Shown: positions 46,062 to 48,534 of the stretch, piece after piece
Layout of the letters: each line of letters opens with the position of its first letter
Numbering within the stretch: position 1 is the stretch's first letter
DNA from: a virus
Taxonomy: Duplodnaviria; Heunggongvirae; Uroviricota; Caudoviricetes
Reading direction: 5' to 3' (one strand)
Virus record (IMG/VR): IMGVR_UViG_2721755676_000001
Length of the DNA: 64,000 nucleotides
Notes under the pieces: model-generated
Seen by the model: the letters and a program-made list of their open reading frames with translations, nothing else
Databases searched by the model: none
What the model was told of the DNA's origin: nothing
Program-made: the position numbers and the translations under genes

Positions 46062-46628
46062 TTAATCATTCAATAATCTATATTTTCTTTTGATTAAATC
46101 TTCACCTTTTTTGGTGAACACAAAACCAAATTGCGATTTTTTGTTCAGCCTAAGGACTCTGTTATCCAACGCATCGGTTGATGGAATCAATGTTTGATCA
46201 TCTATCCAATTAAGTAGCGTAAGAAAGTTCAGCAGCCTCAACGTTGTTGTGCGAAGCTCTTTCGATATATTTTCAATGCTGGCAATTCGTCTTTCTTTTT
46301 TCTCAGGTGGTACAGATAATTGTTCTTGAGGTTTCGTGGGTAGATAATCAATTTCGTTTGCTGAATCGAATGATATGTGTGGCGTAATTTTGCTAAAAAA
46401 GCCTTTCGCTGACTCACTTGATAATAAACCAGACCTATTCATATCGTTTGTTATTCTGTACAGGAGTGGACTGTGTTTCATTTCAGGATAACGTTGATAA
46501 AAGTTAAGCAATTCAAAAGCAGCATTAGCACCAACAAGAAAATCAGAAGGATCGCTGACTTTCCAGAAAGAATGATTTTTCTTAGCGCCAGTGGTGTCAA
46601 CAAATGATAATTCTTTTAACCAACTCAT
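46062..46628 (-). CDS. Hypothetical protein (188 aa from MSWLKELS)
   Basis: RBS GAAAGGAG; third gene of helicase operon. Confidence 0.5.
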   Translation of the reverse strand: MSWLKELSFVDTTGAKKNHSFWKVSDPSDFLVGANAAFELLNFYQRYPEMKHSPLLYRITNDMNRSGLLSSESAKGFFSKITPHISFDSANEIDYLPTKPQEQLSVPPEKKERRIASIENISKELRTTTLRLLNFLTLLNWIDDQTLIPSTDALDNRVLRLNKKSQFGFVFTKKGEDLIKRKYRLLND

Positions 46629-46693
46629 GATGTGCTCCTTTCTAACAAGTGAGCACATCATAGAATTAGTAGATAGGGGGTAAATATGAAATG

Positions 46694-46972
46694 TTACGGC
46701 AACCTGCTCAGTATTTCCTCTAGATCTTTTTTTGTCATATTGGAGTTCTCATAGATGCGCATGATTTTCTCACGCGTCTTAGCGGAAACCCCAACGGCAG
46801 ATGTGACTTTGTCAAATTCAGCCATAGTCATCGTCTCCAGAATGGCATTGATAACTTCAGCCTTAGACATCTTGATTTTTTTCTCTTTGAGTTTTATTTG
46901 AAATTTTCCAAGTTTTTCATTGGCCTTATCAGACAATGCCACTTGGCAATAAGTTGTTTTCTTTTCGCTCAT
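46694..46972 (-). CDS. Hypothetical small Lys-rich protein (92 aa)
   Basis: Starts 2 bp after helicase stop. Confidence 0.45.
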   Translation of the reverse strand: MSEKKTTYCQVALSDKANEKLGKFQIKLKEKKIKMSKAEVINAILETMTMAEFDKVTSAVGVSAKTREKIMRIYENSNMTKKDLEEILSRLP

Positions 46973-46974
46973 AA

Positions 46975-48534
46975 CTAATCTCGTTTCAGAACTCCAAAAT
47001 CGAATGCGCCATCAACAGGCAATACACCTTCTGCAAAGCCAGGTGTGGTGTCGATGATGTGTTTTCGCTCATAAGAGTGAGACAACAGGTATTTGTTGCT
47101 AATGTCAATGAAATCAGTGATAAAACACACGTTTGCCTGATTCTTCTTGGCTCGTAACCCACGACCGACACGTTGTCTCATTTCAACTTCTGCTTTCCCA
47201 CCACCAGCAAGAATGACCGCACCAACGCTTGGCACATCAACACCGACATCCAGAATAGTCGAGCCTATTAAAACATCTATGTCGCCAGACGCTAAACTGT
47301 TCAGCTTTGCTTGCCTTGTCGACTGGTTCGATTCCCCATAAATGAAGTCAACTCTAAGGCCGGACTCTTTCATCATTTCCATCAGGATTTGCCCGTGGCG
47401 TTTAAGACGAACCAGAGTCATACAATTGAGAGAATGTTGCTTATAGAGCAATGCTTCGCGAACAATGGCCTCATTACGTCCCAAATTATACACGATCCCC
47501 AACTGATAAGCCTTTTGGTAGGCAGTGCTCATACCTACTCTAAAATTGAGGTGTTTGTTGGCAAGTTCTGCCTTGATTCTGGCCTCGTCCGGCTTGTAGG
47601 CAACTTTATGATAAAGGAAGTATGGCTTTGCCAGAATGCCTCTATCAATCAGGTACTTTTCCGTGACTTTTATTTCAATTCGCCCGGCCACTGCCATCAG
47701 ACGCATGTTGGCTTCCGTAGAATCCTTCATGAACGGCGTTGCCGTAAGCGCCAGGCGATAGTCTGCGTTCGCACATAATCTGGCAATGTCATAGAAATTA
47801 GAGCCTGAAGACTCATGCGCCTCTTCCAGAATAAGAAGAGAGACACTTGAAAGGAAGCGTTTCACCAAGTCCCGACGTTTGAGGTGGTAGCTCTTCTTAT
47901 CTGGAGTTGCATCGCGTGGTGGTTCTTCAAGGAAACTTGCCAGAGTTTGAACTGTAGCGACGTTGATATGTCGTGATACCTGGAACTCACCCGAGCCAAT
48001 GACTCCAACCTTTTGGTCTTTTAACCACGGTTCGCCATTTTCAGCGCGGTAGTCGATGGATCTCTGGAAGTTTTCGGCCATCTGAAACATCAGAACAGAG
48101 CGGGTTGTTAAAAATAATGTCATTCGACCGATACGTGCAGCTGCTTTGCAGGCAACATTAGATTTCCCGCCACCAGTAGCGATCTGCGCAATCATCATTC
48201 CCTCTCGAACCAGTGTTTCCACAGTCTGATCCTGATATGCATAATCAGGATTGTATGGGAATGGGTTGACCGCCGGATTTGGCTTTCCAAGCGCCGGAGC
48301 TTTGTCTTTGCGGATATGAACACATTTGATGCCCGTCTTGTTCAAGTTCGCCGCTACAGGCTTGGCAAAGCCAGCAGGGAACGAGTTTTTACTCCAGTTG
48401 AACATCGTGCTTGTGCCCTTCCAGTCGCCAGTCTCGACTTCGTAGCTCAACATCTGTTGCACCAGTTGCTTTACCTTGTCATCTGCGCCAGAAATAAGTG
48501 CATTTACTGCGTTAGATACAATCCGAACAGTCAT
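46975..48534 (-). CDS. SF2 DNA helicase (Res/DEAH-type), 519 aa
   Basis: Motif I ATGGGKSN, motif II LILEEAHES, motif III LTATP, motif VI QRVGRGLR. Confidence 0.8.
   Translation of the reverse strand: MTVRIVSNAVNALISGADDKVKQLVQQMLSYEVETGDWKGTSTMFNWSKNSFPAGFAKPVAANLNKTGIKCVHIRKDKAPALGKPNPAVNPFPYNPDYAYQDQTVETLVREGMMIAQIATGGGKSNVACKAAARIGRMTLFLTTRSVLMFQMAENFQRSIDYRAENGEPWLKDQKVGVIGSGEFQVSRHINVATVQTLASFLEEPPRDATPDKKSYHLKRRDLVKRFLSSVSLLILEEAHESSGSNFYDIARLCANADYRLALTATPFMKDSTEANMRLMAVAGRIEIKVTEKYLIDRGILAKPYFLYHKVAYKPDEARIKAELANKHLNFRVGMSTAYQKAYQLGIVYNLGRNEAIVREALLYKQHSLNCMTLVRLKRHGQILMEMMKESGLRVDFIYGESNQSTRQAKLNSLASGDIDVLIGSTILDVGVDVPSVGAVILAGGGKAEVEMRQRVGRGLRAKKNQANVCFITDFIDISNKYLLSHSYERKHIIDTTPGFAEGVLPVDGAFDFGVLKRD

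Follow-up and report, generated by a model that had tools for sequence, protein, structure and literature searches.

The T4 helicase UvsW and the T5 helicase D10 have published functions in ATP-dependent unwinding or branch migration on R-loops, D-loops, forks, and Holliday junctions (PMC5180179), and those of UvsW are also described in PMC7824862. Among characterized proteins, D10 is closest to UvsW and XPB, and three- and four-way junctions are substrates of its branch migration activity (PMC5180179). In T4, UvsW.1 has been described as a "potential DNA-binding partner" of UvsW (PMC7824862).

The window analyzed here, a stretch of 64,000 nt in its entirety, represents an E. coli SSU5-like phage-plasmid and shows 97.8% identity to phage Cyrano at the locus under study. 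In clinical Enterobacteriaceae, phage-plasmids of the SSU5 type are common, and they are able to carry resistance genes. To our knowledge, annotation is the only source of information on the genes with which they replicate and recombine, and literature searches on SSU5 together with helicase or UvsW returned no report of the helicase described below. We consider this locus best explained, with good but not full confidence, as an operon of a UvsW-type recombination helicase next to a separate p188 unit.

Gene layout of the helicase locus

ORF calling returned three minus-strand ORFs where the original prediction had placed them (Table 1). The first matches Pfam ResIII, DEAD, and Helicase_C, each above cut-off, in agreement with the predicted SF2 ResIII/DEAH-type helicase followed by two small uncharacterized proteins. 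The third ORF was called at 46062-46661 (199 aa). Because an AAGGAG Shine-Dalgarno sequence lies 6 nt upstream of the ATG at 46628 and the PHROG 13473 profile opens at residue 12, this ATG is likely the true start. All three products match PHROG families (helicase, phrog_16, 6e-93; p92, phrog_1466, 1e-45; p188, phrog_13473, 2e-131) and are found again in dozens of related elements; they are real genes and not chance ORFs.

TABLE 1 Features of the helicase locus and its surroundings (positions in the window)
Feature	Position	Strand	Basis
FljA-like protein, far edge of variable region	44255..44773	-	Pfam Flag1_repress, 230.5 bits; in SSU5-like loci
32-codon remnant of 377-aa HNH-domain gene	45823..45921	-	blastn against related locus L018
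Stem-loop after p188 stop, possible terminator	46023..46059	-	12-bp stem, followed about 12 nt later by a short U-run
p188, 188 aa	46062..46628	-	ORF call, start reset to ATG at 46628
RNA hairpin, 3' arm holding p188 Shine-Dalgarno and AUG	46619..46670	-	MFE prediction
Promoter-like site (TTTACC, 16 nt, TATGAT)	46657..46684	-	Consensus scan, 9/12 matches; consensus match only
p92, 92 aa	46694..46972	-	ORF call
Helicase, 519 aa	46975..48534	-	ORF call
Divergent control region, 64 nt	48535..48598	.	Sequence and alignment of 16 intergenic regions
ParB1, ParB2, ABC-type ATPase, p296, p88, p210 (putative small terminase), large terminase	48599..53874	+	Pfam ParB_N (twice), ABC_tran, Terminase_6N

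The helicase stop codon and the p92 ATG are separated by 2 nt (TAG-TT-ATG), and p92 and p188 by 65 nt. The original prediction of a single three-gene operon stands in part: the helicase and p92 are paired, whereas p188, located in a variable region, is apparently expressed separately. The locus therefore probably comprises two units, helicase with p92 and p188 by itself. On the other side, a ParB-like gene starts 64 nt from the helicase on the opposite strand, as expected from the predicted divergence from a ParB operon. Two conserved features, a palindromic TATTATAAT box and a helicase leader (AAAGGCACTAAGGAAAGAGG), lie in the control region between them, which is near-invariant across the SSU5-like loci from which the 16 intergenic regions were aligned.

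Assignment of the helicase to the UvsW family

The helicase is built from a UvsW-type N-terminal domain (about residues 1-95) and two RecA-like domains with intact motifs. Walker A, a DExH-type motif II, and motifs III, V, and VI, the hallmarks of an SF2 motor, are all present. In an alignment of five relatives (44-83% identity), ATGGGKS, EEAHE, LTATPF, GSTILDVGVDVP, and RQRVGRGLR are invariant. No nuclease or sensor domain appeared in the Pfam and profile comparisons.

When a profile of the helicase was searched against the PDB, T4 UvsW was the best match (2oca_A, 9.1e-22), with two collinear stretches in which profile positions 2-209 correspond to UvsW 2-219 and 234-497 to 222-469. The N-terminal stretch scores 25.3 bits (i-E 5.4e-5) and includes the common motif "lsyevdGa..WdGk..l..y....fPaGf". 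The UvsW N-terminal fragment 1rif_A was also matched (profile 1-210 to 1-220). In addition, hhalign aligned the helicase with T4 UvsW at 99.5% probability (E 2.7e-22) over 420 columns, 17-474 to 16-459, a coverage that takes in the N-terminal columns 17-86. XPBII scores equally (9.8e-22), but only its motor domains align, from profile position 105. The name UvsW was given independently by the annotators of Cyrano and of Rhizobium phage RHph_N2_6. Judged by these profile comparisons, the helicase carries a domain of UvsW type N-terminal to the motor, is collinear with UvsW over its full length, and is a member of the T4 UvsW family. Its substrate preference is suggested by family only, with XPBII matching the motor domains as well as UvsW does.

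A putative role in recombination-dependent replication

The original prediction of a "replicative helicase module" did not hold in the sense of a fork helicase. The 519-aa protein contains no DnaB or hexameric-helicase domain, and Cyrano encodes a DnaB_C-domain helicase elsewhere (CYRAN_32), adjoining a Toprim primase gene; the reading of the 519-aa protein as a DnaB-type replicative helicase was rejected. A replication-related role is retained in another form, that of a UvsW relative that would act as an accessory helicase in recombination, repair, and replication mode.

Genes for potential partners are encoded as well. SbcD-, SbcC-, and RuvC-like genes lie inside the window. The gp32, RecA, and DnaB genes lie outside it and were checked in Cyrano, where gp32 (224.7 bits) and RecA, the latter with an intein, were both verified. 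UvsY in Cyrano is known from annotation alone, and Pfam gives no match for it.

We propose a helicase that would work as a monomer, combining an SF2 motor with an N-terminal domain of UvsW type and encoded by a backbone gene of the SSU5-like phage-plasmid. By analogy with UvsW and T5 D10, it would be expected to unwind branched DNA and to catalyze branch migration, with D-loops, R-loops, stalled forks, and Holliday junctions as presumed substrates. In this role it would contribute to repair and recombination-dependent replication alongside a gp32-like SSB, a RecA/UvsX-like recombinase, an SbcCD-like nuclease, and a RuvC-like resolvase, leaving fork replication to the separate DnaB-type helicase and primase. 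When the UvsW placement is taken with the gp32-, RecA-, SbcCD-, and RuvC-like genes, a T4-style mode of recombination-dependent replication is predicted for lytic growth. A further prediction is that this protein is dispensable as a fork helicase.

p92, a small basic protein paired with the helicase

With 19 Lys and Arg residues out of 92 and a pI of 9.5, p92 is basic, which agrees with its earlier description as Lys-rich. Its AF2 model has four helices (pLDDT 84.6), with residues 1-14 unstructured in the monomer, and the C-terminal helix pair carries a conserved (N/G)MT-x-E/D-D-L motif. The gene directly follows the helicase in every SSU5-like locus that reaches past the helicase stop, at a distance of 2-3 nt in SSU5-type loci and of -4 to +11 nt in many distant ones. 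The 2-nt gap in the window suggests that p92 is probably translationally coupled to the helicase, and the two would be made together as a backbone operon of the SSU5-like phage-plasmid.

Statistically supported p92 homologues directly follow the helicase in Xenorhabdus, Morganella, and Photobacterium elements. The reach of an iterated p92 HMM was limited to these and one further locus (L107); a 94-aa downstream ORF of Stenotrophomonas phage ANB28 was unsupported as a homologue (hhalign probability 0.3%). The protein diverges faster than its neighbor, with 36-58% identity against 82-93% for the helicase. No relatives of p92 turned up in Pfam or the PDB: PDB sequence and profile searches returned designed repeat proteins or noise, fold searches returned generic helical hairpins only, and a Pfam scan of 29 family members gave no consistent family. 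Most likely, p92 either binds DNA as a small partner of the helicase, encoded where T4 has UvsW.1, or serves as a ribbon-helix-helix (RHH)-type regulator, both roles being guesses.

The second of these roles amounts to a different account of the gene pair, in which p92 is not a cofactor but an autoregulatory RHH repressor of the divergent helicase/ParB promoter region and the pairing is regulatory. This is a possible, though tentative, alternative. At the p92 N-terminus, conserved buried positions (C9, V/L11, L13) alternate with exposed positions that vary (8, 12), followed by a T/S helix cap, an (N/G)-x-K-x-S-K loop, and a second helix. The repressor CopG falls in exactly the same register on p92 (hhalign pairwise E, 0.008), but at a probability of only 4.9% and with a manually entered CopG sequence. 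The unstructured residues 1-14 would be expected if the strand needs a dimer, and both the basic pI and the palindrome in the control region fit a DNA-binding regulator. However, neither the 29 p92 members nor the distant positional analogues match any Pfam RHH family, and the hairpins returned by the fold searches are generic. The sole RHH match was to an ORF about 1.2 kb downstream in one locus (L111), not directly after the helicase.

p188 and the variable region

The region 3' of p92 shows 25 architectures among 74 viral loci, and p188 is present in 20 of the 74. An exhaustive search of 1.84 billion proteins yielded just 11 representative clusters of the p188 family. No relatives were found in Pfam, PADLOC, NCBIfam, or the PDB, and the AF2 model (pLDDT 44.3) is too poor for a fold search. 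An initial impression of an antirepressor KilAC/ANT domain at the C-terminus was dropped, being unsupported by any tool. As far as these searches reach, p188 is an orphan family. p188-like homologues with 22-24% identity occupy the same position in Xenorhabdus and Morganella elements, which suggests that p188 might be an ancestral part of the operon with frequent losses and not cargo.

The start of p188 lies within a predicted RNA hairpin with an MFE of -28.5 kcal/mol (z -5.9), and none of 200 shuffled sequences was as stable. An equivalent hairpin occurs in a 42%-identical group of p188 homologues, and also in Xenorhabdus and Morganella with unrelated sequence. On read-through helicase-p92 mRNA, this hairpin would hide the p188 ribosome site and block translation. 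The 5' arm of the hairpin shares sequence with the -10 element of the promoter-like site, and a transcript starting at this site would therefore lack that arm and provide an unblocked p188 mRNA. Downstream, the 91-nt stretch containing the possible terminator has a z of -3.1; the terminator scan did not report this stem-loop. In our reading, p188 is likely a separate, separately controlled unit at the start of the variable region. We infer both this regulatory logic and the function of p188, for which, alone among the three genes, an accessory or conflict-related role is possible.

The HNH-domain remnant beyond p188 lacks about 1,020 bp between 15-nt direct repeats relative to L018. In a relative, an intact copy of this gene, with a Pfam HNH match, comes right after p188.

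Synteny with the ParB-terminase block

Synteny was counted across loci with a helicase identity of at least 39% and enough upstream flank. In 28 of 29 such loci, a ParB-ParB-ABC ATPase-terminase block diverges from the helicase, with 64-100 nt between the helicase start and ParB1; the other locus (L108) showed nothing. These loci belong to alpha-, beta-, and gammaproteobacterial elements about 100-118 kb in size, their range extending from Rhizobium and Paracoccus to E. coli, and the genes 3' of the helicase are not conserved. Among viral loci, the helicase adjoins ParB in 80 of 80. Every relative examined has both the helicase and p92, at a level of conservation close to that of the terminase. 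Because it keeps the same divergent position toward the ParB-to-terminase block across proteobacterial elements, the helicase is a core gene and not defense cargo.

A role of the helicase in recombination alone leaves the invariant linkage to ParB, ABC ATPase, and terminase unexplained. One reading that would account for this linkage is that the helicase and ParB-ParB-ABC ATPase-p296 form one conserved DNA-processing machine tied to packaging, with p92 as DNA-binding adaptor, which we regard as unlikely. Just as improbable are the tasks that such a machine might have: branch clearing or concatemer loading before terminase action, or a DNA modification pathway. The short and constant distance to ParB1 while downstream genes vary, together with the nearly invariant shared control region, is in line with this proposal, but conserved adjacency may reflect a stable module boundary or shared regulation alone. 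In Cyrano, the annotation of p296 likens it to MK0520, in which an ABC-type ATPase is joined to a predicted acetyltransferase domain; its GNAT match is faint and, at 14.4 bits, far below the cut-off of 23.6. Moreover, the UvsW-family helicases of T4 and T5 work without such partners (PMC7824862, PMC5180179).

A broader version makes the helicase the fixed anchor of an ancient module beside ParB-ParB-ABC ATPase-GNAT-like-terminase, a DNA-processing machine for packaging or modification with lineage-specific partners and p188 as a gated effector; we think this quite unlikely. Its partners would be p92-type basic helical proteins in gamma- and betaproteobacterial elements and a "VDPIHFF" coiled-coil protein in alphaproteobacterial ones, a scheme to which we give little credence. 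It is similarly doubtful that the p188 family is tightly gated, kept silent on the operon mRNA through a structurally conserved RBS-occluding hairpin.

A defense or anti-defense system, the other function originally considered, is very improbable, whether formed by all three genes or by the helicase with its small partners. PADLOC gave partial matches to the helicase core only (PbeA, the best at 80 bits; type IV restriction helicases; DpdF), and the best NCBIfam match, to the Dnd-associated restriction enzyme dnd_restrict_1, reached 60.6 bits against a cut-off of 600; these matches cover generic helicase domains only. No full-length match with partner genes was found for PbeA/Dnd-linked, type I/III/IV restriction helicases, DpdF, or Druantia DruE, and p92, p188, and their neighbors match no defense or partner model in PADLOC. 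The location of p188 in the variable region, with an HNH-domain gene behind it in a relative, would suit cargo. The helicase and p92, however, are present throughout the lineage at near-terminase conservation, unlike cargo, and the N-terminal domain of the helicase is of UvsW type, with neither nuclease nor sensor domain in the protein; for these two genes the defense reading was rejected.

The UvsW-type recombination helicase operon, then, is an ordinary locus overall, and its new details are small, none of them surprising to a specialist. It does offer concrete leads in the strictly co-inherited p92, the conserved hairpin that would gate p188, and the deep synteny with the ParB/ABC/terminase block.

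Comparison with known systems

Among more distant systems, Herelleviridae DNA helicases (dhlA/DhlA of Staphylococcus phage MSA6 and those of SPO1-like phages of Staphylococcus, Listeria, and Bacillus) resemble the C-terminal half of the helicase. Its residues 224-493, approximately, find 32-37% identity in hundreds of Herelleviridae phages. Mostly this half alone aligns in one piece, some of the genes carry inteins, and the genomic context differs from that of the locus described here. For p92, the comparison is with RHH regulators of the CopG/Arc/MetJ superfamily: profile matches are below significance and p92 has an extra C-terminal helix pair, while its N-terminal 48 residues fit the strand-helix-loop-helix pattern and register.

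T5 D10 and archaeal XPB/XPBII belong to the same SF2 subgroup as the helicase, D10 being placed there through its published relatives. XPBII does not share the N-terminal domain, and its alignment begins at profile position 105.

T4 UvsW.1 (76 aa; PDB 2JPN) is like p92 in position and size, and both are small and helical (p92 by prediction). In contrast to p92, UvsW.1 is acidic (pI 4.2 versus 9.5). There is no detectable sequence similarity (hhalign probability 0.2%) and UvsW.1 is absent from the fold-search matches, so that homology was rejected and the resemblance is positional only.

T4 UvsW itself shares just about 23% identity with the helicase, has NDECH in place of EEAHE as motif II, and lacks an insertion found here at about residues 205-225. 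It is encoded by a virulent T-even phage rather than a temperate phage-plasmid, and T4 is without the ParB/ABC/terminase block from which the helicase diverges. Nevertheless, the two proteins are alike over their full length, with the N-terminal domain and both RecA-like domains collinear (PDB 2OCA, 1RIF), and similar in size (519 versus about 503 aa). Both genes are immediately followed by a small ORF. In addition, a gp32-type SSB, a RecA/UvsX-type recombinase, and a gp46/47-like SbcCD are encoded here too, as seen in the window and in Cyrano.

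Gene organization of the locus

The original prediction described three tightly linked minus-strand ORFs, an SF2 helicase followed by two small proteins, divergent from a ParB gene. This description was right in all details, including ORFs and spacing. As read from the sequence, 2 nt lie between the helicase stop codon (TAG) and the ATG of p92, the 92-aa second product, and 65 nt between p92 and p188, the third product. A ParB_N-domain gene begins on the opposite strand 64 nt from the helicase. The true start of p188 is most likely the ATG at 46628, yielding 188 aa: an AAGGAG Shine-Dalgarno sequence lies 6 nt upstream, and residue 12 is where the PHROG 13473 profile starts to match.

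Escherichia phage Cyrano matches the full length of the region at 97.8% identity, and Salmonella phage SSU5 matches the helicase part at 78.7% nucleotide identity; based on these identities, the window is classified as an SSU5-like phage-plasmid. Its first 11 kb give >99% matches to E. coli plasmids of 112-116 kb. In Cyrano, the first gene is annotated as "UvsW helicase" and the other two as hypothetical proteins; the SSU5 order is helicase, 92-aa ORF, and a lipoprotein where p188 stands here. In addition, the window starts with an accessory island that is not present in Cyrano (6-5994): a type I restriction R-subunit gene (1005 aa shown), behind which come the group II intron reverse transcriptase ltrA and a fragment of a transposase.

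Features of the helicase locus and its surroundings
Feature	Position	Strand	Remarks
FljA-like protein, 172 aa	44255-44773	minus	Pfam Flag1_repress, 230.5 bits
Variable region	44774-46693		equivalent stretch in loci L005-L084 between p92 and FljA-like gene
HNH-gene remnant, 32 codons	45823-45921	minus	fused N- and C-terminal ends of a 377-aa gene
Third ORF (p188)	46062-46661	minus	199 aa counted from first ATG
p92 ORF, 92 aa	46694-46972	minus	ORF call
Helicase ORF, 519 aa	46975-48534	minus	ORF call
Divergent control region, 64 nt	48535-48598		between helicase and ParB1; near-invariant among SSU5-like loci
ParB1-to-large-terminase block	48599-53874	plus	order kept in alpha-, beta-, and gamma-proteobacterial elements (loci L085-L113)

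The helicase is a UvsW family member

The helicase contains the Pfam domains ResIII, DEAD, and Helicase_C and matches phrog_16 ("DNA helicase"; 6e-93). When queried against the PDB as a single sequence, it retrieved archaeal XPBII (1.7e-12) and T4 UvsW (4.6e-8). A profile of five sequences (A5; helicase relatives of 44-83% identity), across which all catalytic motifs are invariant, had T4 UvsW as its best PDB match (2oca_A; 9.1e-22), aligned as two collinear segments (2-209 of the profile to 2-219 of UvsW, and 234-497 to 222-469). XPBII scored equally with A5, yet its alignment begins only at profile position 105. The profile-UvsW alignment also includes a common N-terminal motif, "LSYEVDGA..W.G.S..F.....FPAGF" versus "FSFEADGYRFNPRFRYGNWDGRIRLLDYNRLLPFGL". 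Direct comparison of A5 with UvsW as given in the T4 record, using hhalign, gave a probability of 99.5% (E 2.7e-22, 420 columns aligned). At the level of sequence comparison, the full-length assignment to the T4 UvsW family is firm.

The known activities of UvsW are unwinding of R-loops and D-loops, fork regression, and Holliday junction migration, in support of recombination-dependent replication; its T5 relative D10 is a branch-migration enzyme (PMC5180179; PMC7824862). We read the helicase gene as a core gene for a UvsW-type enzyme with an accessory role in recombination and replication. A replicative helicase module, as originally proposed, is rejected on the basis of a separate 446-aa DnaB_C-domain helicase in Cyrano, encoded beside genes for a Toprim primase, a ligase, and Pol III alpha. 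The other proposal, a defense or anti-defense system, is likewise rejected for the helicase and p92, by core-only PADLOC matches, NCBIfam matches below cut-off, and the backbone status of the gene. PADLOC returned only partial core matches for the helicase (PbeA at 80 bits, with lower scores for type IV restriction, DpdF, and DruE) and none for p92 or p188, and the top NCBIfam match of the helicase, a Dnd-linked restriction enzyme, reached 60.6 bits where the cut-off is 600.

SbcD-, SbcC-, and RuvC-like genes lie within the window, and Cyrano encodes a gp32-family SSB (224.7 bits), an intein-containing RecA-type recombinase, and a "UvsY" that is annotated without a Pfam match. The element thus appears to carry the remaining parts of a T4-style recombination set, UvsY by annotation only. 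The Cyrano recombinase gene, CYRAN_55 (L003 1066-3405; 779 aa, RecA/UvsX-type), has a LAGLIDADG homing-endonuclease domain in its intein.

Deep synteny with a divergent ParB block

The helicase adjoins ParB1 in all 80 IMG/VR loci recovered with it. Scanning one genome per species with a profile yielded 33 helicase loci. At a helicase identity of at least 39%, the gene is divergent from ParB1-ParB2-ABC-type ATPase-p296-(usually p88)-p210-large terminase in 28 of 29 loci, a set that includes two phages added from a further search; no protein of this block was detected in L108. Hosts of the loci include Rhizobium, Paracoccus, Phyllobacterium, Roseospira, Castellaniella, Chitinibacter, Stenotrophomonas, Photobacterium, Xenorhabdus, Morganella, and Yersinia, typically on contigs of 100-118 kb. 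Across this alpha- to gamma-proteobacterial range, the genes 3' of the helicase are not conserved. The helicase is therefore a backbone gene. Four contigs of the SSU5-like supergroup (L090, L096, L097, and L099), some with helicases 82-92% identical, were filed under MAGs of Candidatus Fimivivens, Bacillota, Chloroflexi, and Saccharibacteria, labels that most likely reflect binning error instead of true host range.

The block encodes two ParB_N proteins, the ABC-type ATPase, a 296-aa protein (p296; faint GNAT match, annotated MK0520-like in Cyrano), a small wHTH-like protein, a putative small terminase, and the large terminase. Since a ParA-like gene is found at another site (33607-34707), the partition system is probably not formed by the two ParB-like proteins. 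Within the divergent control region, a palindromic TATTATAAT box could serve as a candidate -10 element for both directions.

p92 is a co-inherited small partner of the helicase

A p92 homologue of 91-101 aa follows the helicase after 2-3 nt in all SSU5-like loci reaching past the helicase stop; the 70%-identity group has a version of 116-118 aa. p92 evolves much faster than the helicase (57.6% versus 92.3% identity in SSU5; 36% versus 83% in L070). Its family, searched by profile among 5.8 billion proteins, comprised 75 clusters confined to SSU5-like elements of Enterobacterales. An iterated p92 HMM, run over 5,781 ORF segments of distant loci, found significant homologues in Xenorhabdus, Morganella, and Photobacterium immediately 3' of the helicase, and one in L107 about 400 nt farther downstream. 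In Morganella psychrotolerans (L094 7614-7968), the homologue is split over two frames into a 49-aa N-terminal and a 75-aa C-terminal piece, owing to either a frameshift or a sequencing error. In most other distant loci (26 of 29), a small ORF likewise comes after the helicase; homology to p92 was not demonstrable for these (hhalign probability of 0.3% for the ANB28 ORF). The p92-type ORF is replaced in the alpha-proteobacterial members (L086, L101, L102, L105, and L110) by a 58-70-aa coiled-coil ORF that has a conserved N-terminal "VDPIHFF"-like motif and in many cases has a 4-nt overlap with the helicase stop. p92 is a small partner co-inherited with the helicase.

None of 29 p92 family members has a Pfam match. 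The AlphaFold model of p92 is confident (pLDDT 84.6), with helices at 15-30, 37-47, 50-76, and 81-89 and unstructured residues 1-14. The N-terminal region alternates conserved C9, V/L11, and L13 with variable positions 8 and 12, followed by a T/S helix cap, an (N/G)-x-K-x-S-K loop, and the second helix. CopG aligns in ribbon-helix-helix (RHH) register (pairwise E 0.008, probability only 4.9%). The N-terminal 48 residues resemble RHH proteins; the RHH reading is plausible, and p92 could be a helicase cofactor or an RHH-type regulator.

p188 and the variable region

Only 20 of 74 loci carry p188. Between p92 and the conserved FljA-like gene, these 74 loci show 25 architectures with 0-3 genes each, and this stretch may be a conflict or moron hotspot. 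Recurrent families are several lipoproteins, the p188 family, and an uncharacterized domain with "YPF...SSNF...GYS"-like motifs, found by itself (162-204 aa) or HNH-fused and also present in Xenorhabdus (L092 9721-10068). The 377-aa HNH-domain gene is intact in L018 (7614-8747); after p188 in the window, a deletion of about 1020 bp between 15-nt direct repeats encoding "DIACDE" left a remnant. FljA is the Salmonella repressor of phase-1 flagellin; the FljA-like gene is kept in SSU5-like loci and gives a weak match in Xenorhabdus (28.6 bits). A repressor of flagellin expression on a phage-plasmid could alter host motility or antigenicity.

The p188 family is very small, with 11 representative clusters in a search of 1.84 billion proteins; no relatives were found in Pfam, PADLOC, NCBIfam, or the PDB, and its AlphaFold model was not usable (pLDDT 44). 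Since homologues hold the third position in other SSU5-like loci (42-44% identity) and in Xenorhabdus and Morganella (22-24%), the p188 gene may be ancestral, with frequent loss.

Between p92 and p188, the spacer folds into a hairpin (-28.5 kcal/mol, z -5.9) whose 3' arm contains the Shine-Dalgarno sequence and AUG of p188. An equivalent arrangement occurs in the 42%-identical group and also in Xenorhabdus and Morganella, where the sequence is unrelated. Overlapping the 5' arm is a promoter-like site (TTTACC, 16 nt, TATGAT), and a stem-loop follows the p188 stop. On read-through mRNA from the helicase operon, the ribosome site would be held in the hairpin and p188 would be untranslatable, while a transcript begun within the 5' arm would allow its translation. 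p188 is an orphan gene at the edge of the variable region, separately gated according to this predicted mechanism.

Comparison with known systems

Nothing in the locus should surprise a specialist, and a UvsW label for the helicase is already in public records. Modest novelty lies in the now firm full-length assignment, in the deep synteny linking the helicase to the ParB/ABC/terminase block, in the p92 family with its possible RHH nature, and in the conserved hairpin predicted to occlude the p188 ribosome-binding site. In T4, a 76-aa protein, UvsW.1, is encoded directly after uvsW. p92 was rejected as its homologue, with no similarity detected by hhalign (probability 0.2%), and the two proteins differ by opposite charge, with a pI of 9.5 for p92 versus 4.2 for UvsW.1.
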